The translations under genes and the position numbers were made by a program. A DNA stretch of 64,000 nt from Shigella phage ESh36, in sequence record ON528746; one strand, 5' to 3'. Positions 2,743 to 43,418 of this stretch are shown in pieces. The notes beneath the pieces are model-generated. The model searched no databases and was not told the DNA's origin. It saw only the letters and a list, made by a program, of their open reading frames with translations. Numbering within the stretch: position 1 is the first letter of the stretch; each line of letters opens with the position of its first letter.

Positions 2743-3702
2743 TCACTTCCACTGCATTTCGCATGCTAATTGAATGAAAAGATATGCTAAATGTAATTCC
2801 GTATTAGCCGCAATTCCATGATACTGGTTATTTTCACCAACAATTTCATACATACGAATAATACTTTGCGGAGTTACGCGTGTATAGATTTCTTCGGCAA
2901 GCTTACCAACGAACCACGAATAATCAGCTGCATATTTTGGTGCTAAAGCTCTGAGTTGTTTAACATCTTTATTTTTGAGAGACTCAAGAACATCATCAAT
3001 AGCACCACGATCGTTAGTAACCAGTGATAAAATACCAGCATCCAAAACACCTTTAGATGAATAACTATCGAGCTCACCAATAGTTTTACGAAAATCAGGA
3101 AAATTCTTTTTAACCAAAGCTGCTACAACTTTCATATCAGCTATAGCAATTCCTTCATGCTTACAGATTTCAGTCAACCGACGAATCATCTGCTTCATCA
3201 TTTCAATTTTATCTTCATCGGTCGGTTGACCGAACGTAATAACTCGGCAGCGTGACTGAAGCGGTTTAATAATACCATCAATATTGTTAGCAGTAATAAT
3301 AATACTGCAGTTTGAACTATAAGCTTCCATAAAGGAACGAAGATGCCGCTGAGACTCTGCTAATCCTGAACGGTCAAATTCATCAATAACAATTACTTTT
3401 TGACGACCATCAAATGAAGCTGCACTAGCAAAATTAGTCAAAGGACCACGAACGAAATCAATTTTACAATCTGACCCATTCACAAACATCATATCAGCAT
3501 TTACATCATGACACAATGCTTTTGCTACAGTTGTTTTACCTGTTCCTGGAGAAGGAGAATGAAGAATAATATGTGGAATTTTACCTTTACTTGTAATAGA
3601 TTTAAAGGTTTCTTTATCAAAGGCGGGAAGAATACATTCATCGATAGTAGATGGACGATATTTCTGTTCAAGAATGTGTTCTTTTTCATTTACAGTAATC
3701 AT
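2743..3702 (-). CDS. 44: Clamp loader ATPase gp44
   Basis: 319 aa from the ATG at 3702 (MITVNEKEH...); Walker A GTGKTT; the ORF-track start at 3717 is a TTG extension. Confidence 0.9.
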
Positions 3703-3733
3703 AATTTCCTCATTCAAGTTTTAGTGTAAATTT

Positions 3734-3749
3734 AAGGGCCGAAGCCCTT
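3734..3749 (-). other. Intercistronic C(UUCG)G-type hairpin between 45 and 44
   Basis: AAGGGC-CGAA-GCCCTT on plus strand, directly after the gene 45 stop. Confidence 0.55.
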
Positions 3750-3751
3750 TA

Positions 3752-4438
3752 TTAAAAATCGTGGGTAGAATCAGCTTCAAGAGCTACTACATAATTCGCG
3801 TGTTCACCTTCAAATTTAGCAGCACCTTGTTTACCTTTTGCCCAGAGCAGAAGTTTATAATTTCCTGGTTGCATTTTCATATTTGCCATATTGATAATGA
3901 AATTAAATGTATTTTCACCGTCATAATCACCAAGAGTCAAAGAATATTTAACACGGGTCAAAGCAGAATCTTCTACTTTATTAAAACCGTTAATTACGAT
4001 TTTACCTTCTTTTATTGTGATAGCAATTGTATCAATCTGCAGACCACGAGATACACGCAACAGTTGTTGAAGGTCTTCAGCTTTAATTTCAGTAACAACA
4101 GATGCTACCGGGAATGGAATTGGTTTATTAGGAGCCACTACTGTGCTCGGATCAGCTGCTGGCCAAAAAATTGTTGAACGAGCATCAGCAATTTTAATAT
4201 TTCCATCTTCTGACTGGGAAATTTCTGCATCGTCATTAACTAGGGACAGAATACCGAGAAAACCGTTCAAATCGTAAATTGCTACATCAAAATCAATAGT
4301 GTCAGAAATATTTGCTTCCGCATAAGTTGTACCATTAACTGCGCGAGTCATAATAAATTGACCAGATTTAAGCATAATACCAGAGTTAATAGTAGCGAAA
4401 TTTTTAAGCAGAGCAGTAGTATCTTTAGACAGTTTCAT
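3752..4438 (-). CDS. 45: Sliding clamp gp45
   Basis: 228 aa; MKLSKDTTALLKNFATINSGIMLK... matches T4 gp45. Confidence 0.9.
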   Translation of the reverse strand: MKLSKDTTALLKNFATINSGIMLKSGQFIMTRAVNGTTYAEANISDTIDFDVAIYDLNGFLGILSLVNDDAEISQSEDGNIKIADARSTIFWPAADPSTVVAPNKPIPFPVASVVTEIKAEDLQQLLRVSRGLQIDTIAITIKEGKIVINGFNKVEDSALTRVKYSLTLGDYDGENTFNFIINMANMKMQPGNYKLLLWAKGKQGAAKFEGEHANYVVALEADSTHDF

Positions 4439-5136: not shown

Positions 5137-6819
5137 TTAAACCATTACAGTAAATCGACCAACTTTCTTCATTTGAAGATGCTGACCATATGCTTGCGGG
5201 TCGTGGTCTCTATGTGAAATAACAAAAACATTAGTATTTTTTAAACTATCTAAAATAGTTGAAATAGCTTTTACACCTTCAACATCAGTTGCTGAATCAA
5301 AAACTTCATCGAGAATTAGTGTGTTTATTTTAACACCTGAAACTTTTTCAGCAATATCACGCCAAGTAAATAGAAGAGCAATATCAATTCGTGCTTTTTC
5401 GCCTTGACTGAATGAAGCATAACTAAAATCTTCACGACCACGGGATTTAATTGTCTCATTAAATTCTTCATCTAATGTAAACACATAATCCGCTTCCATT
5501 ATTTTAAGATAATGGTTAATCTGCTTATTAAATAATGGAATGTACTTTTTAATAATAGCACCTTTAATACCAGAATCTTTGAGCATATCAGTCAAAATTC
5601 CTCTGTGGTATTTTTCCATTACTAAATTAGTTTTTGTCTTAACAATTTTATCAAGTTCTTCTTGAAGCAGTGCTATTTCATCAGCATGGTCAATAAACTC
5701 GGATGATGCTTTTTCTATAGCTGCTTTAACTTTTTTAGCTTTATCTACAGTCGTGATTAGAGATTGCTTTTTATTGCGAATATCATTTGCCAACGTCTGT
5801 TGGGTTTTAATATTATCTCGGTATTCATCAACGAGAACTTTTAAATTATCACGATGTGTTGAAAGCTGTTCAAACGAATGCGTGCATTCAGAAACTTTAT
5901 CTTTAATTTTAGAAACAACTTTATCACCGGAACTTAATTGTGACAAACAGGTTGGACATAATCCACCTTCGTGATACATATTAATGACTTTATTATACGA
6001 GTCAATTTTTGATTTAATTAAAAATGCTTCTTGGCCGATTTTATTAAATGCATCAGTCGGGTCTTCATCCAAAACAATATTAACTAATCTTTCATTAGCT
6101 TCTTCTATTTCCGATTTTAGCGTTCTAGCTTCTTTTGCCAAATCATCATACATATTCTGTAGACGAGTAAGGTTATCACCAGTTAATTTTTTCTGGCGTT
6201 CAACGTTATCATTATATATTTTAATTTGTTGGATAATACTATCTTTTTTAACATCAAGCACTTGGTTTTGTGAATTTAATTCACGTATTAGTGCTTTATT
6301 AAGCTTATCCATTTCAGCTAATGTTCCTACCTCGAGCAGGTCTTCCACAAGCTTTCTTCGTGCAGGGGTCGACAAACCCATGAAAGGGGTATACCCTGCT
6401 GTACCAAGGACAACAATCTGCTTGAAACTGGCATATGACATTCCGATAAGCTGTTCAAATTCTGCTTGGAAATCTTTACTGCTGGCAGATTCATTAAGAC
6501 GTGTACCGTTAACGGTGATTTCGAAAACGTTTGGTTTTTGCCCTCTTTTGATATAGTACTTTTTCTCATCATATTCCATCCACAGTTCAACTAAAAGTTC
6601 TTTCTTATTTGTGCTGTTTATTAATTGACCTTTCTTTACATCACGAAATGGCTTGCCAAAAAGCCCAAATGTGATGGCTTCTAACATAGTAGACTTACCA
6701 CCACCATTTCGTCCAGTAATAAGAGTTTTTTGAACCTTATCTAGTTGAATGTCAATAGGATTTCCACCTACTGACATTATATTTTGATACCTAACTCGGT
6801 TTAGTTTAAAATTCTTCAC
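5137..6819 (-). CDS. 46: Recombination nuclease ATPase subunit gp46 (SbcC/Rad50-like)
   Basis: 560 aa; Walker A GRNGGGKST; long coiled-coil middle; matches T4 gp46. Confidence 0.9.
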   Translation of the reverse strand: MKNFKLNRVRYQNIMSVGGNPIDIQLDKVQKTLITGRNGGGKSTMLEAITFGLFGKPFRDVKKGQLINSTNKKELLVELWMEYDEKKYYIKRGQKPNVFEITVNGTRLNESASSKDFQAEFEQLIGMSYASFKQIVVLGTAGYTPFMGLSTPARRKLVEDLLEVGTLAEMDKLNKALIRELNSQNQVLDVKKDSIIQQIKIYNDNVERQKKLTGDNLTRLQNMYDDLAKEARTLKSEIEEANERLVNIVLDEDPTDAFNKIGQEAFLIKSKIDSYNKVINMYHEGGLCPTCLSQLSSGDKVVSKIKDKVSECTHSFEQLSTHRDNLKVLVDEYRDNIKTQQTLANDIRNKKQSLITTVDKAKKVKAAIEKASSEFIDHADEIALLQEELDKIVKTKTNLVMEKYHRGILTDMLKDSGIKGAIIKKYIPLFNKQINHYLKIMEADYVFTLDEEFNETIKSRGREDFSYASFSQGEKARIDIALLFTWRDIAEKVSGVKINTLILDEVFDSATDVEGVKAISTILDSLKNTNVFVISHRDHDPQAYGQHLQMKKVGRFTVMV

Positions 6820-25455: not shown

Positions 25456-25719
25456 TTATTTTAACGTTCGCCAAATTTTTACTGCTTCACGGCGAGATAC
25501 TTCTACAGCTCCAAGTTCTATAGCTTTTTGGCGTCGGCGAGCGTGTAAGTCATAATGTTTAATGCGTTTATCTTGAAACCAAGAACGTTTCATTCCTATT
25601 GCTTCTGCCATTTCATGAAGCTCTTCAATATCTCCATCAGTGAACATATGACAATTTTTAGTTGGATGACCGCGAAGTTTCCATCCATGATTCATTAAAA
25701 CATCTACGTAAACTGTCAT
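25456..25719 (-). CDS. Hypothetical protein (nrdC.11 position)
   Basis: 87 aa ORF. Confidence 0.45.
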   Translation of the reverse strand: MTVYVDVLMNHGWKLRGHPTKNCHMFTDGDIEELHEMAEAIGMKRSWFQDKRIKHYDLHARRRQKAIELGAVEVSRREAVKIWRTLK

Positions 25720-25865
25720 TGATTCTTCTCCAAATAAGTTTCGATAATTTTCTGAGCGAGATAAACCGCGTTATCTTCAGTTGCGTCTTCTAAGAAACTT
25801 TCAAAACACTCTGAAATTTCTTCTGTGTCAATCAACTTTTTTACTTCAATTGGTGTAATTTTCAT
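25716..25865 (-). CDS. Hypothetical small protein; start moved to the ATG downstream of the promoter
   Basis: ORF-track 25716..25982 runs through the promoter; ATG at 25865 with GGAG SD gives 49 aa (MKITPIEVKK...). Confidence 0.35.
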   Translation of the reverse strand: MKITPIEVKKLIDTEEISECFESFLEDATEDNAVYLAQKIIETYLEKNQ

Positions 25866-25931: not shown

Positions 25932-25959
25932 CTTTGTGAAAAATTTTTGAAATAAAAAA

Positions 25960-25975
25960 GGAGCCCGAAGGCTCC
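25960..25975 (-). terminator. Intrinsic terminator after the nucleotidyltransferase-fold gene
   Basis: GGAGCC-CGAA-GGCTCC hairpin followed on the transcript by UUUUUUAUUUC. Confidence 0.65.
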
Positions 25976-25978
25976 CTA

Positions 25979-26989
25979 TCATTTATAATAACTTCGGTGG
26001 TTTTCAAGATAAACCCTCTCAAGGAAGTCATCCCAAAAACCCATGTCTACTTTTTGCTGCATACCGTTCTTAGAAGCTTCAGTAGATGCTGCTTCTACTT
26101 GATCGACCACATCTTCCAAAAACTCTTGAACCGTTTTAAATGGATGCTTACCCAACTTCACGTCGAGAATAAAGGGAGCATCTTGGAGTGGATAAATCAA
26201 GTCGCCAGTTTTGTAAATTTCCAATAGTTGAAGTCCACCACGACAAGCATGGCTCAGAGCTTTCCAGTCAATGCCTTCGTTGGCTTCGGCTTTACGAGCA
26301 CGTTCACCGTATTCAGCATCTAATTTGTTCAGTGACTGCTTAAGCTCAATAAGAGAAAGCGTTGTCTGATATTTACGACCCAACACAGTGTAGAACGTTT
26401 GTGGACCTGTTTTCTCATGATTATGGAATACCCATTCACAGAATTCGTTCTCTGGAAGACGATGCTTAATATCTTCAACTTTAGTACGACGCTGCTTAAT
26501 GGAACCGTCTTCTTGGTAATCAATCCACTGCTCAGGGATTTGATTAACTACTTTCAATACATCACGTAATGCAGCCAAACGAGAACCCTTAACGCCGTAT
26601 TTAGAAGCTTGCTTGCGAACATATCCTAAATAGGATTTCATGTTAGTCGTATAAAAACGAGAACGGTTGTCTTGAATAAACTTCCACACATCAGGCAAAT
26701 CAGATTTAACCACTAGTTCAGGTGGAGTGTGAAGCATATCTAATGCTACAGTTTCACCATCTGCTGCTAATTTAAAGAAATATTTAAGACTGTATAGTTC
26801 ATGGTCAATATCATCTTTAGTGTTTTTAGATGATGTGTTGTTAGTATTTTTACTCATGTGCTCTTTAACATTTCCAATAAGAATATCGCGAGCAGGAGGA
26901 ACAAAGATTTCTTTAAAATCTACATCAGATTCTGGAGTAGAAGTTCCATAAAGATGACTACCAAAATAAGACTTAACTACAGTTTTCAT
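25979..26989 (-). CDS. Polymerase-beta-type nucleotidyltransferase-fold protein (function unknown)
   Basis: 336 aa; N-terminal GS-x9-DxD motif (YFGSHLYGTSTPESDVDF) with a downstream acidic residue (ALDMLH); ~230 aa helical C-terminal region; TAATG-coupled to the upstream membrane gene. Confidence 0.6.
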   Translation of the reverse strand: MKTVVKSYFGSHLYGTSTPESDVDFKEIFVPPARDILIGNVKEHMSKNTNNTSSKNTKDDIDHELYSLKYFFKLAADGETVALDMLHTPPELVVKSDLPDVWKFIQDNRSRFYTTNMKSYLGYVRKQASKYGVKGSRLAALRDVLKVVNQIPEQWIDYQEDGSIKQRRTKVEDIKHRLPENEFCEWVFHNHEKTGPQTFYTVLGRKYQTTLSLIELKQSLNKLDAEYGERARKAEANEGIDWKALSHACRGGLQLLEIYKTGDLIYPLQDAPFILDVKLGKHPFKTVQEFLEDVVDQVEAASTEASKNGMQQKVDMGFWDDFLERVYLENHRSYYK

Positions 26990-27462
26990 TATTCAGCCTT
27001 ATATTCAATAACAGGACATACTTTAGCTTTACGAGCTTTTAAAAATTCAACGATAATCGATTTCTTGGGTTGAATAGGAGGTAAACCTTTATACGCCCTA
27101 TCAATATTTTCTATGTGTAAAGCATAATCCTTTTTCCATTTATAATCTTTATATTTTTCATACAAATGCGCAGGAATAACAAATGAACCGATAATAAGTA
27201 AAACAACCAAAAGCGCAAGTATAAATGCTGATGGAAGAAGAGTCCATAAACTACCGAAAATAAGCCAACGTTGTAGGCTTTCTGCACAAATAATTGTTAG
27301 ACCTGCGAGTATAGTACATCCGAAAAAAGAAACGAAAAATGTAGGGATAACAATAGACCAAAAGTATGCACACAGTGTCTTAGGTCGTTTCCATTCATCG
27401 TTAAACAGTTTGAATAATTTATAGTGCCAAGAGTTTTCATTAATAATCATAATTATAATCAT
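26989..27462 (-). CDS. Two-TM membrane protein
   Basis: 157 aa; two long hydrophobic segments then a K-rich tail; overlaps both neighbours by 1-4 nt. Confidence 0.5.
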   Translation of the reverse strand: MIIIMIINENSWHYKLFKLFNDEWKRPKTLCAYFWSIVIPTFFVSFFGCTILAGLTIICAESLQRWLIFGSLWTLLPSAFILALLVVLLIIGSFVIPAHLYEKYKDYKWKKDYALHIENIDRAYKGLPPIQPKKSIIVEFLKARKAKVCPVIEYKAE

Positions 27463-27980
27463 CCTTTCATTGAAGGTGTAACAGTTGTTAAATACTTAAT
27501 CATAGCCTCAGCTTCTGATTTTGATAATGAAATTTCTTCATTGTTTTGACGAATAGAAATAAAATCCGGATGACGGTCACCACCAGCTTTTAAAACACAC
27601 ATATAAGTATCAGTTTCATCTTCAATATTTGAAATGATTGAAGCAGTTCCACATGAATGCGGTTTTTGATAAATCAATACAGCTTTTCTTCCGCCATTTG
27701 ACTGTTCATAAACTTTTAACACATCAAACAAATCGCTTCTTTTATCAATAGCTAAGATGTTGTTTTCATCTTCAATATTAAATCCTTCGGATACTTCATA
27801 AAGTGTCACCCATAAATCACCAATATCAATAACAGCGTTCACTTTTCCATGACTTTCAAGAGCATTACAAATTTTCTTAATTTCATCATAACTCATTTTA
27901 ATAATATCATCTCCTTGAATAAGGAAGATGTCATTTTTAAATTCAACACGAATTAAACCACTTCCACTTGAAATAAACAT
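27459..27980 (-). CDS. Hypothetical protein, paralogue A
   Basis: 173 aa; shares EGFNIEDENNILAID and C-terminal SKSEAEAMIKYLTTV with the adjacent 184-aa ORF. Confidence 0.5.
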   Translation of the reverse strand: MFISSGSGLIRVEFKNDIFLIQGDDIIKMSYDEIKKICNALESHGKVNAVIDIGDLWVTLYEVSEGFNIEDENNILAIDKRSDLFDVLKVYEQSNGGRKAVLIYQKPHSCGTASIISNIEDETDTYMCVLKAGGDRHPDFISIRQNNEEISLSKSEAEAMIKYLTTVTPSMKG

Positions 27981-27986
27981 ATTTCC

Positions 27987-28541
27987 TCACTTTGAAATCA
28001 TAATTGGAATGACAGAATCGAGATAAGTCTTTAGCGCAATAGCTTCGTCTTTGGTAAATGTGACAATATACGATCGAAAATCATCAATTTGACGAATAGT
28101 TAAGACATCACCATCTTCATAGCATTTTGAAACATTTAAAATAGTTTCATCATTCTGATTACAGGAGTTAGTAATAATAGCATTACATTTTTTAAACCAT
28201 TTTAAATTATGTTTTCTTTTAGTAGAATCATAAAAATATTTAATGTTAGTTATAAAATTATCCCAATTATTAATTGATAAGCACATTGACTCGCTTTTAA
28301 TATTAAATCCTGGGCATGAAGAATAAAAATTAATTTTATGCTCATCATTAATGCTTACAATTTTATCAGTGTAAGCATATTCAATTTGGGTTAAACGAAC
28401 AATTTCACTAAACGTAAAATATAACATATCGTCTTCTTGCGTCAAACGATACATGTTATTTACTTTTTCTATAGCCAATTCACCAAAAAGCGGACTAACT
28501 TCTAATACTAATCGTTTCATATTAATCCTTTTTATTGGCAC
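27987..28541 (-). CDS. Hypothetical protein, paralogue B
   Basis: 184 aa; PGFNIKSESMCLSINN and TKDEAIALKTYLDSV motifs parallel paralogue A. Confidence 0.5.
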   Translation of the reverse strand: MPIKRINMKRLVLEVSPLFGELAIEKVNNMYRLTQEDDMLYFTFSEIVRLTQIEYAYTDKIVSINDEHKINFYSSCPGFNIKSESMCLSINNWDNFITNIKYFYDSTKRKHNLKWFKKCNAIITNSCNQNDETILNVSKCYEDGDVLTIRQIDDFRSYIVTFTKDEAIALKTYLDSVIPIMISK

Positions 28542-28800
28542 GAATTTGTTCTAAAATTTTAGAGTATTCCTTTGTATCAGATTTACGTACAATCGATACA
28601 CTATACGGCATACTATCGGTGTCTTTTATAAAGCGTTCCAAATGACATTCTAATAAAATTTCTGGATTATAAATCGTGTACATCAAATTACCTGTTGCTC
28701 CACGATATTGACAGACTTCTACTGATTGAACACCATTCCATAATTTTGTTAAGACCAAATCACCTACTTCTAATTTAGGAAAGCCCATGTTATTCACCAA
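28522..28800 (-). CDS. Hypothetical protein
   Basis: 92 aa ORF overlapping neighbours. Confidence 0.4.
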   Translation of the reverse strand: MVNNMGFPKLEVGDLVLTKLWNGVQSVEVCQYRGATGNLMYTIYNPEILLECHLERFIKDTDSMPYSVSIVRKSDTKEYSKILEQIRANKKD

Positions 28801-28975
28801 TTAAAGTTTCAATATAAGAATCAAGATTTACTTTAGCTTCTTCCATAAGAGTTTTGTATTTAATCTTGTTAGCATGTCCGGAGAAAGCTGATTCATCAAT
28901 AACTGTTGCTGTATGAACAGCTTTGCTATATGTTTCAATTAATTCTTTTAATTTAAAAGCCTGCTCACTTGTCAT
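28790..28975 (-). CDS. Hypothetical small protein (first gene after the promoter)
   Basis: 61 aa ORF. Confidence 0.4.
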   Translation of the reverse strand: MTSEQAFKLKELIETYSKAVHTATVIDESAFSGHANKIKYKTLMEEAKVNLDSYIETLIGE

Positions 28976-29105
28976 TACATACTCCTTTGAATAATATCAA
29001 TAATGTTGTTCACCAGATTATAAGTAAACATTGGGTAATTATATTGAATCATCACATACACAACAAACAAAACTTTCATTCTCTTCTCCTTGGCAGTTGA
29101 CAAGA

Positions 29106-29139
29106 TTACTATACCATAACCTTGCCAACTTGTAAACCA
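29106..29139 (-). promoter_or_regulatory. T4-type early promoter
   Basis: GTTTAC-18 bp-TATAGT. Confidence 0.6.
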
Positions 29140-29313
29140 TTAAATGACGTTTTCAATAAAATTCTGAAGCTTTGTGTGAGCATCAACCATGATTTTCATT
29201 TCTTCTTTTGCGAAAGCTGTACCTCTTTCACGAGAAGAACATTCATAGTCAGAAACTGCATTAGCATATTCTTCAATTAGCTTCATTAAAAACATCTGCT
29301 TTTCAGTTTTCAT
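29140..29313 (-). CDS. Small ORF (57 aa) missed by the ORF track
   Basis: Manual read: MKTEKQMFLMKLIEEYANAVSDYECSSRERGTAFAKEEMKIMVDAHTKLQNFIENVI; stop abuts the promoter -35. Confidence 0.35.
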   Translation of the reverse strand: MKTEKQMFLMKLIEEYANAVSDYECSSRERGTAFAKEEMKIMVDAHTKLQNFIENVI

Positions 29314-29497
29314 TATTCCACCTAATCATTTCAAGATATTGAACTAACTTAGCTTTAGATTTATCCAAATCCTTTTTAGCTGCTTCTATACCATCGTATG
29401 AATATCCTTCACAATGCTCAACTGCTAATTGATATGAATCTATTTCAATATCACGTGCTAATTTAATGATTTTTTCAAACTGTTCGCGTGTTAGCAT
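29303..29497 (-). CDS. Hypothetical small acidic protein
   Basis: 64 aa ORF. Confidence 0.4.
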   Translation of the reverse strand: MLTREQFEKIIKLARDIEIDSYQLAVEHCEGYSYDGIEAAKKDLDKSKAKLVQYLEMIRWNNEN

Positions 29498-29499
29498 AC

Positions 29500-29739
29500 T
29501 TACACTCTCGTATTATGATCGATAATTTCATCAAGAAACATATCTAACGCTTCTATAGCATTATCCACTTTAGTTTCAAAGTCTTTAATGCCTTTATTCG
29601 AAATACCCGATGAATACCAAGCAAAGTCAATCAGCTCTTCATCTGCTTTACGAATTGAAGCCACTAATTCCTTGATTTTATCTGCTTGCTCTATACTAAT
29701 CATTATTCCACCACATATGACAGAGAGAATATTGCACAC
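29500..29739 (-). CDS. Hypothetical small protein
   Basis: 79 aa ORF. Confidence 0.4.
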
Positions 29740-31509: not shown

Positions 31510-31695
31510 TTAAAGCATATTCACATAAGCTATTAATTCGTTTTCTTTCTTATCAAACCGATCAGCAAATTCTTCCTGCTGTTCAGGAGATAGCGGGCCG
31601 TATTCATCATAAAAGGTGTTTGCTTCTGTATGCTCATCTAGAAGTTCATGGATAAGCTCAAACAATTTATCTTTTTGTTCTTTACTCAGACTCAT
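31510..31695 (-). CDS. Hypothetical small acidic protein (tk.1 position)
   Basis: 61 aa ORF. Confidence 0.4.
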   Translation of the reverse strand: MSLSKEQKDKLFELIHELLDEHTEANTFYDEYGPLSPEQQEEFADRFDKKENELIAYVNML

Positions 31696-42586: not shown

Positions 42587-42662
42587 TGGTCGAGGCAGTA
42601 GGGATCGAACCTACGACCCAGGACTTAGAAGGTCCTTGCTCTTCCTTCTGAGCTATGCCTCG
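42587..42662 (-). tRNA. tRNA-Arg (anticodon UCU)
   Basis: Manual cloverleaf: acceptor CGAGGCA, anticodon loop CUUCUAA, T-loop GGTTCGATCC, CCA encoded. Confidence 0.85.
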
Positions 42663-42666
42663 TATT

Positions 42667-42741
42667 TGGCGGACGTGATAGGATTCGAACCTATAACCAA
42701 TCGCTTAACAGGCGATCGCTCTGCCATTGAGCTACACATCC
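42667..42741 (-). tRNA. tRNA-Asn (anticodon GUU)
   Basis: Manual cloverleaf: D-stem GCTC/GAGC, anticodon stem ATCGC/GCGAT, loop CUGUUAA, T-arm ATAGG-TTCGAAT-CCTAT, CCA encoded. Confidence 0.8.
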
Positions 42742-42745
42742 AAAT

Positions 42746-42832
42746 TGGTGGGGAGTGATGGAGTCGAACCACCCGAGTCGCAATGACAATGAATTTACAG
42801 TCCACACCGCTACCTCTACGGGATAACTCCCC
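42746..42832 (-). tRNA. tRNA-Tyr (anticodon GUA), type II with long variable arm
   Basis: 87 nt; anticodon loop CUGUAAA; variable arm GTC-ATTGC-GAC; T-loop GGTTCGACTCC; CCA encoded. Confidence 0.75.
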
Positions 42833-42845
42833 TTAATTCTTAATT

Positions 42846-42920
42846 TGGTGGCCCTGGGTGGAATTGAACCACCATCTGGCGATTATGAGTCGCTTGCTTG
42901 AACCTTCCAGCTACAGGGCC
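42846..42920 (-). tRNA. tRNA-Ile (anticodon CAU, Ile2/lysidine type; Met not excluded)
   Basis: Anticodon arm GCGAC-UCAUAAU-CGC as in E. coli tRNA-Ile2; acceptor GGCCCTG/CAGGGCC; unusual short D-stem. Confidence 0.7.
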
Positions 42921-42921
42921 T

Positions 42922-42997
42922 TGGTGCTGATTGACGGAATCGAACCGCCGACCTTCTCATTACAAGTGAGTTGCTCTACCTACTGAGCTAAATCAGC
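42922..42997 (-). tRNA. tRNA-Thr (anticodon UGU)
   Basis: Canonical cloverleaf; anticodon loop CUUGUAA; CCA encoded. Confidence 0.85.
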
Positions 42998-43002
42998 AAA
43001 AC

Positions 43003-43092
43003 TGGCGGAGGCGATAGGATTTGAACCTATGAGTCGCCGGAGCGACTGCCGGTTTTCAAGACCGGTGCATTAAACCACTCTGCCACGCCTCC
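43003..43092 (-). tRNA. tRNA-Ser (anticodon UGA), type II
   Basis: 90 nt; matches remembered T4 tRNA-Ser; anticodon loop CUUGAAA; long variable arm. Confidence 0.88.
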
Positions 43093-43094
43093 AG

Positions 43095-43168
43095 TCTCCA
43101 TACAAGGATTTGAACCTTGGACCTCCTGATCCCAAATCAGGCGCTCTACCAAACTGAGCTACACGGAG
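43095..43168 (-). tRNA. tRNA-Pro (anticodon UGG); 3' CCA not encoded
   Basis: Anticodon loop UUUGGGA; followed by CU and then the tRNA-Ser 5' end (Pro-Ser dimeric precursor arrangement). Confidence 0.85.
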
Positions 43169-43178
43169 TAAATTAAAT

Positions 43179-43252
<74 letters not shown>

Positions 43253-43257
43253 AAATT

Positions 43258-43344
43258 TGGTGCGAGAAGTGGGACTCGAACCCACAAGGAAATCATTCCG
43301 CAGCATTTTAAGTGCTGTGCCTTTACCAATTTGACCATTCTCGC
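43258..43344 (-). tRNA. tRNA-Leu (anticodon UAA), type II
   Basis: 87 nt; matches remembered T4 tRNA-Leu (GCGAGAAUGGUCAAAUUGGUAAAGGCACAGCACUUAAAAUGCUGCGG...). Confidence 0.9.
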
Positions 43345-43345
43345 G

Positions 43346-43418
43346 CTGGGAATAAAGGACTCGAACCTTTGCATCTAGCAGTCAAAGTGCTATGCCTTAC
43401 CAACTTGGCTAATTCCCA
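43346..43418 (-). tRNA. tRNA-Gln (anticodon UUG); 3' CCA not encoded
   Basis: Starts UGGGAAU; anticodon loop CUUUGAC; discriminator G then one C before the tRNA-Leu 5' end. Confidence 0.88.

Follow-up and report, generated by a model that had tools for sequence, protein, structure and literature searches.

MobD.1/y05I-family proteins of Shigella phage ESh36: a divergent paralogous pair with a predicted Pur-alpha-like fold and a putative link to a membrane protein and an RlaP-family nucleotidyltransferase

A stretch of 64,000 nucleotides of Shigella phage ESh36 (sequence record ON528746; hereafter, the window) was analysed with a focus on two adjacent minus-strand genes, here called B and A in their order along that strand, whose products belong to the phage-specific MobD.1/y05I family. 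They are followed by the genes of a small membrane protein and of NrdC.11, a nucleotidyltransferase (NTase) of the RlaP family. The reading that we favour, at a probability of roughly 55%, is that A and B are ancient paralogs with a Pur-alpha-like architecture, whose C-terminal repeat is coupled to the membrane protein/NTase module.

The preliminary description of this DNA had reported A and B as a tandem paralogous pair. Both open reading frames (ORFs) were present on the minus strand as described, and the motifs quoted as common to them (EGFNIEDENNILAID / PGFNIKSESMCLSINN and SKSEAEAMIKYLTTV / TKDEAIALKTYLDSV) were found in the translations. BLASTP aligned the two proteins in register over nearly their full length, with 26% identity, 49% positives and an E-value of 3e-10. 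The Smith–Waterman score of 110 lay far beyond the 32.3±5.5 (maximum 59) obtained with 2000 shuffled controls (z = 14), and among the remaining window ORFs of 100 aa or more none scored above 52 against either protein. A chance similarity was thus ruled out by BLASTP and the shuffle test. Both proteins exceeded the gathering thresholds of the Pfam families T4_y05I_N (PF24449, cutoff 24.9; A, 119.6 bits, E 1e-34; B, 143.5 bits, E 3.5e-42) and T4_y05I_C (PF24448, cutoff 27; A, 83.8 bits, E 1e-23; B, 66.8 bits, E 2e-18), with the domains in N-then-C order, and matched phrog_1502 (A, E 4e-67; B, E 6e-77). The paralogy is therefore real, as BLASTP, the shuffled controls, the common Pfam domains and the common PHROG agree. 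A search with a hidden Markov model of the C-repeat against the 940 six-frame ORFs of at least 30 aa in the window matched A and B only. The length of 184 aa initially given for B required correction, as it presupposes a start at the GTG at 28541, which has no ribosome-binding site and would put the first 20 nt of B within the upstream gene. The ATG at 28520 follows an AGGA, lies one base past the upstream stop and agrees with the N-termini of homologues and with the RefSeq annotation, and the product of B is therefore likely a protein of 177 aa.

B is the orthologue of T4 mobD.1 (97% identical in the N-domain and 88% in the C-domain), whose product is named Y05I_BPT4 in UniProt, and A is 94% identical to RB32ORF097c of phage RB14. 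Since RB32ORF097c of both RB14 and RB51 is annotated as ‘similar to mobD.1’, the relationship between A and B had already been recorded, as it had in Pfam. Some database names in this region are erroneous: mobD.1 and mobD.4 appear in RefSeq as ‘molybdopterin-guanine dinucleotide biosynthesis protein MobD’, an artefact of the gene symbol for a mobile endonuclease, and nrdC.11 is named ‘thioredoxin’ in many GenBank records, a mis-annotation that has been propagated. The literature search returned no account of y05I as a transcription factor, mentions of mobD.1 only as a map position, and nothing functional for the pair in connection with nrdC.11.

The earlier proposal of a local duplication followed by divergence, if understood as a recent local event, is opposed by both the C-domain tree and the identity matrices. 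In a neighbour-joining tree of the C-domain, A fell outside a clade with 100% bootstrap support that contained B, T4 MobD.1, the single-copy Mosigvirus gene and an alternative allele of B. The identity between A and B (22% in the N-domain and 33% in the C-domain) was no higher than that of either protein with genes of other genera; the corresponding values for B and the Mosigvirus protein were 34% and 54%. A recent local tandem duplication was consequently rejected, as A and B are not each other’s closest relatives; therefore, their split is ancient, or one of the copies came laterally. As to position, the ancestral slot beside the membrane gene belongs to A; as to sequence, the single-copy genes that occupy this slot elsewhere have their orthologue in B. 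Either A diverged very fast, or it was inserted or acquired laterally.

In both lineages the N-domain diverges faster than the C-domain, with 38–39% versus 63–79% identity between alleles. Within Tequatrovirus, mobD.1 exists as two alleles that are only 50% identical (N-domain, 40%; C-domain, 62%), as found when positions 6001–6543 of four loci (L006–L009) were compared with 27987–28520 of the window. In the flanks of the divergent alleles, A and the membrane gene are 93–95% identical, and the NTase is 97–99% identical in three of the four loci and 88% in the fourth, a pattern of cassette-like allele replacement. Of the notion that the pair follows a pattern typical of specificity or recognition modules, the part that stands is thus its agreement with the fast divergence of the N-domain and the two mobD.1 alleles. 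Shigella phage SP21535, a viable isolate, carries a single gene of 179 aa in place of both (L012, 2501–3040; P0022), which joins the N-domain of mobD.1 to the C-domain of A and is the only copy; the same fusion was also encountered in metagenomic contigs. It looks like the product of an unequal crossover between the tandem genes.

A profile search of 1.84 billion cluster representatives yielded 29 family proteins at E ≤1e-3, all of them from phage contigs or T4-like phages. Full-length members are few (P0047, P0048 and P0062), and many are stand-alone proteins of 67–87 aa, which consist of the C-terminal domain alone and end in the conserved motif F-T-K-x-E-A-x-A-L-x-x-Y-L-N-S-V-I-P-T-M-K. The conserved core of the family is the C-terminal repeat of ~70 aa, which is a stand-alone gene in most Tevenvirinae genera. 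In another T4-like lineage, two tandem stand-alone C-repeat genes lie directly upstream of the membrane gene (L030 and L035, 3491–3998), and these appear to be an independent tandem pair within the family. In distant relatives, the y05I gene is closely preceded by genes of small DUF7189 proteins of 54–71 aa (L004, 5773–5988; L010, 989–1189 and 1543–1707). These proteins carry an I-x-Q-x-x-D ... L-x-x-E-Q/A motif resembling y05I repeats 1 and 3, match the C-domain of A weakly (E 7e-5) and may be further single-repeat relatives.

AlphaFold2 (AF2) models were computed for both proteins, with mean predicted local distance difference test (pLDDT) values of 72.6 for B (~90 in the N-domain and ~50 in the C-domain) and 85.2 for A, for which the alignment was deeper. 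As assigned by DSSP, both models comprise three repeats, namely four strands and a helix, again four strands and a helix, and five strands and a helix. The E-E-E-E-H topology of PC4-like, PUR and Whirly proteins thereby occurs twice within residues 1–107 of B and 1–94 of A, at a pLDDT of ~90, and the models superpose significantly on solved members of this fold group, with Pur-alpha, MRP1/MRP2, p24, StWhy2 and PC4 as the top structural neighbours. In the models, repeats 1 and 2 pack as one intramolecular domain, corresponding to T4_y05I_N, and repeat 3, corresponding to T4_y05I_C, has no partner within the chain of the monomer. Profile–profile comparison related repeat 1 to repeat 3 with 93.6% probability (E 2e-7); repeat 2 has diverged past recognition by this method. 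A and B are therefore predicted to possess a Pur-alpha-like, PC4/Whirly fold of three β-sheet-plus-helix repeats, where the likeness concerns the predicted fold and the likely mechanics and does not imply family membership. A fold search of BFVD returned mostly family members and no functional lead.

Gene neighbourhoods were compared across 80 IMG/VR loci retrieved via the membrane-protein alignment. An adjacent C-repeat gene was present in 31 of the 35 loci with RlaP downstream versus one of the 45 without RlaP (Fisher p 1e-16; the loci are phylogenetically non-independent and this statistic was not relied on), and at least two of the four exceptions with RlaP have a remnant of the gene, one truncated and one degenerate. 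Two full-length copies were found in Tequatrovirus only, one full-length copy in 10 loci and C-only genes in 18–19 loci. The y05I_C gene abuts the membrane gene, with RlaP downstream, in Tequatrovirus, Mosigvirus, Gaprivervirus, Tegunavirus, Jiaodavirus, Winklervirus and metagenomic relatives; the exception among the Tevenvirinae genera examined was Karamvirus, of which phage PG7 has only a degenerate C-like ORF at this place. The NTase gene follows the membrane gene either immediately or past 0.4–1.2 kb of inserted genes. Invariant residues across 11 diverse homologues of the membrane protein include, towards the N-terminus, W8, H9, C27, Y29 and F30 and, towards the C-terminus, K143, C145 and P146. 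They suggest that the two termini, both presumably cytoplasmic, together form a small, possibly metal-binding module, and the invariance of His9, Cys27 and Cys145 hints at a metal site. Distant homologues of the membrane protein also occur in phages with neither y05I nor RlaP nearby (44 of the 80 loci).

The identity of the NTase was confirmed with Pfam, as NrdC.11 scored 44 bits against the RlaP family at a cutoff of 23. T4 NrdC.11 has been placed in cluster 5 of this family, and a preprint from 2025 reports that bacterial RlaP adds one or two nucleotides to the 3′-OH of damaged RNA and helps to restore tRNA function (PMC12776372). Earlier comparative work predicted a role in RNA repair in phages (PMC7824862). 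T4 mutants that lack the fragment from nrdC.11 to mobD.3 are viable, so the fragment is dispensable (PMC9825161).

Taken with the fold, this neighbourhood suggests the following mechanism. Pur-alpha folds its repeats I and II together within the chain into a ‘type I’ PC4-like domain, its repeat III joins that of a second molecule, and heterodimers of Pur-alpha and Pur-beta via repeat III have been proposed (PMC7549692). Analogy with this pairing, and with PC4-like proteins of a single repeat, suggests that repeat 3 of one phage protein would pair with repeat 3 of another molecule, and A and B would then form homo- or heterodimers. The conserved C-repeat would couple the protein to the membrane protein/NTase module, and the fast-evolving acidic N-domain would provide a variable recognition surface, which more probably contacts a protein or mimics nucleic acid than binds DNA or RNA in the classical manner. 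The whole unit may be an early-transcribed, membrane-associated accessory module, dispensable in the laboratory and probably serving RNA repair or counter-defence, of which A and B are probably a dimeric adaptor or regulator. Heterodimerisation and contact with the NTase or the membrane protein, which had been put forward for testing, are thus reasonable hypotheses suggested by the predicted fold and the neighbourhood.

Several observations weigh against this interpretation. T4-like phages generally keep their gene order, and common descent confounds the co-occurrence statistic; adjacency is therefore no proof of joint function. T4 keeps mobD.1 and nrdC.11 though it has lost the membrane gene and A to mobD, and in RB14 (L003) mobD.1 is split by a frameshift or stop into two ORFs, at 3530–3685 and 3679–4089, one for each domain, and only the N-terminal piece is annotated as mobD.1; the parts of the module are therefore not strictly interdependent. 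On the structural side, the C-domain of the B model is of low confidence, and the inter-domain orientation is uncertain in both models (predicted template modelling score 0.54–0.58). There is also no sequence-level link to the PUR, Whirly or PC4 families in Pfam or in the profile search of PDB sequences: PUR was absent from the Pfam matches at E ≤1 and PUR chains from the PDB matches at E ≤10, the latter search returning only insignificant matches to AcrIIC5 (E 0.32) and CsoS1D. Finally, the family is acidic (pI 4.2–5.5; net charge −3 to −22), in a fold whose best-known representatives bind nucleic acids. This acidity makes a classical nucleic-acid-binding role less likely.

The same property bears on the proposal that A and B are binding factors for single-stranded RNA or DNA of the Pur-alpha/Whirly/MRP type, their task being to hold damaged RNA, for instance the halves of a cleaved tRNA, or to anneal it, and to present the 3′ end to NrdC.11. 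All top structural neighbours bind single-stranded nucleic acids (PMC7549692), the genes share a unit with an RNA 3′-end repair enzyme, and the proteins are rich in aromatic residues (13–22 F/W/Y). The proposal is unlikely nevertheless, as the N-domain, which is the part matching PUR I–II, is the most acidic (pI 4.3–4.7; net charge −5 to −9), least conserved and absent in most genera, which would be odd for the substrate-binding domain of a conserved enzyme. Moreover, the invariant columns are mostly hydrophobic or Q/E/T, and Lys and Arg are few among those of closer homologues and in none of those of the wider family. Acidity also disfavours a role as transcription factors, as conveyed by the Pfam name ‘y05I-like putative transcription factor’, which is the least likely of the readings considered and very improbable. 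Pur-alpha, p24 and PC4 are indeed described as transcriptional regulators (PMC7549692 for Pur-alpha), yet neither a helix-turn-helix nor another DNA-binding motif was found among the Pfam and NCBIfam matches, and none of the literature searched uses y05I in that sense; the label appears to have been transferred from the fold.

A and B could instead be stand-alone acidic decoys or inhibitors of a host nucleic-acid-binding protein, serving anti-defence or host takeover, in which case the adjacency to the NTase would be mere T4-type synteny. This we consider improbable, since the tight, often overlapping junction of the C-repeat and membrane genes is kept across at least six genera while genes insert elsewhere in the block; in addition, no PADLOC or NCBIfam model matched A or B, and the AcrIIC5 match mentioned above is not significant. 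A more elaborate version of the favoured interpretation would make this the first Pur-alpha architecture of a phage, and of a prokaryotic virus, in which an A/B heterodimer formed via the C-repeats docks on the two-Cys membrane protein at its cytoplasmic termini and controls or targets NrdC.11, and the hypervariable acidic N-domains sense or neutralise different host RNA-cleaving defence nucleases. This version is decidedly doubtful; if true, it would give T-even phages a membrane-associated RNA-repair/counter-defence module that has not been described before.

Genome notes, Pfam and PHROGs already list the pair as such; what the analysis adds is modest, namely the fold assignment, the block of C-repeat, membrane protein and RlaP, and the case against a recent duplication. 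In a model phage, few stretches of unexplained genes are as well known as the T4 block from nrdC to tk, and for about five of its genes testable handles are now available, through the predicted Pur-alpha/PC4-like fold of MobD.1-type proteins, the 70-aa repeat tied to a membrane protein and the RNA 3′-end enzyme at the end of the block. In its classical form, the counter-defence of T4 pits polynucleotide kinase and RNA ligase against anticodon nucleases. Should the link proposed here be functional, tRNA-repair counter-defence in T4 would gain a further module; should it not, the analysis remains useful in correcting the widespread wrong labels ‘MobD molybdopterin-guanine dinucleotide biosynthesis protein’, ‘thioredoxin’ and ‘putative transcription factor’.

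A segment of 3.1 kb with the pair inside it is 95–96% identical to more than 350 Tequatrovirus (T4-like) genomes, and the gene order is the same as in hundreds of them; by its sequence, the window is Tequatrovirus DNA. Its minus strand carries the T4 block with nrdC.5 to nrdC.11, the mobD.x genes, rI.-1, rI, tk, tk.4 and vs, in which the pair sits between the mobD.2/Tudor genes and nrdC.11, the position of T4_y05I/PHROG 1502 genes in T4-like genomes. The preliminary description had placed the pair inside an NTase operon, which fits the sequence, as the genes between an early-type promoter-like site and a strong terminator-like hairpin are tightly packed or overlapping (Table 1). In particular, the A/membrane and membrane/NTase junctions overlap, the former because the stop of A shares an ATGA with the first ATG of the membrane gene. 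In the record of phage OE5505, a terminator is annotated at the equivalent place after the NTase. No late-promoter box (TATAAATA) was found between 25.9 and 29.2 kb, and an Rfam scan detected no structured RNA within the gene unit, its sole matches being a tRNA cluster at 42.6–43.4 kb.

Table 1. Features of the gene unit around A and B, from the promoter-like site to the terminator-like hairpin (window coordinates).
Feature	Position	Strand	Remarks
Promoter-like site, sigma-70/T4 early type	29108..29136	−	GTTTACA-17-TGgTATAGT; TG extension, preceding G; consensus match only
mobD.2-like ORF, 34 aa, first after the promoter	28975..29079	−	T4 mobD.2 is annotated in the equivalent position
DUF7438 protein, 61 aa	28790..28975	−	‘Helicase loader’ according to PHROGs and RefSeq; the window has four further DUF7438 paralogs
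Phage Tudor-domain protein, 88 aa from ATG (92 aa from TTG at 28800)	28522..28788	−	Pfam PF24144, E 3e-40
B, mobD.1 orthologue, 177 aa from ATG 28520	27987..28520	−	T4_y05I_N + T4_y05I_C; three predicted β-sheet-plus-helix repeats
A, ‘RB32ORF097c’ type, 173 aa	27459..27980	−	T4_y05I_N + T4_y05I_C
Small basic membrane protein, 153–157 aa depending on start	26989..27462	−	phrog_944
NrdC.11, 336 aa, Pol-beta nucleotidyltransferase of the RlaP family; final gene of the unit	25979..26989	−	PF10127, phrog_388
Intrinsic-terminator-like hairpin just after the NTase stop	25958..25977	−	8 pairs, 5 G-C, then T run

The mobD.2-like ORF of the window had no Pfam match; the equivalent 34-aa gene in locus L006 carries PF26864. 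The Tudor gene, here directly upstream of mobD.1, is also found upstream of the y05I gene in three distant loci (L010, L030 and L047). Within the 5′ portion of mobD.1, at 28445–28418 (−), there is a further good sigma-70-like match (TTGACG, 16-nt spacer, TATATT, with TG), which may be due to chance, as shuffled sequences give nearly as many promoter-like sites as the region does. The DUF7438 paralogs (57–67 aa), all on the minus strand within 3 kb (28790–28975, 29140–29313, 29303–29497, 29500–29703 and 31510–31695), constitute a larger local paralog array than the A/B pair, made up of mobD.2a/3/4-type genes, a tk.1/tk.2-type gene and the 61-aa gene. Between nrdC.11 and nrdC.10, an 87-aa DUF4031 protein (E 1e-21; 25456–25719, −) and a 49-aa ORF (25716–25865, −) occupy a site at which T4 has just a 115-nt gap, and an equivalent insertion is present in some Tequatrovirus relatives (L006, SP21535). 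Farther away, nine tRNA genes (42590–43418, −; RF00005, 59–74 bits) form a GC-rich patch (0.45) whose position matches the T4 tRNA region, and the GC skew turns from negative to positive at ~49 kb, consistent with the switch of the coding strand from minus to plus.

Among known systems, T4 MobD.1 and RB32ORF097c show no essential difference from B and A, respectively. In T4 proper, the HNH homing endonuclease gene mobD replaces A and the membrane gene, and the membrane gene of RB14 is correspondingly annotated ‘replaces mobD’. The architecture matched by the A and B models is that of Pur-alpha (PDB 3k44, 5fgo and 8chw; PUR I–II plus III, that is, ‘type I + type II’), which has been called the only known protein to combine both PC4-like types (PMC7549692). 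Unlike Pur-alpha, the phage proteins are acidic and phage-only, have a third repeat with five predicted strands, and share no detectable sequence similarity with it. The single-repeat, dimerising PC4-like proteins, comprising Borrelia Bpur (3n8b/3nm7), PC4 and the PC4-like protein of phage T5 (4bg7), match some part of the model; the phage repeat has its own strongly conserved C-terminal motif, YLNSVIPTMK. SsgA/SsgB (PDB 3cm1) provide an example of a Whirly-like fold serving protein recruitment, as SsgB recruits FtsZ (PMC8061694); they have no sequence relationship with the phage proteins and their context is actinobacterial cell division. Lastly, the Pseudomonas RNA-repair operons with RtcB, RtcA and RlaP resemble the present unit in their RlaP-family NTase, here NrdC.11, but the bacterial operons described pair RlaP with RNA ligases and RtcA, and here the conserved partners are a y05I_C protein and a small membrane protein.

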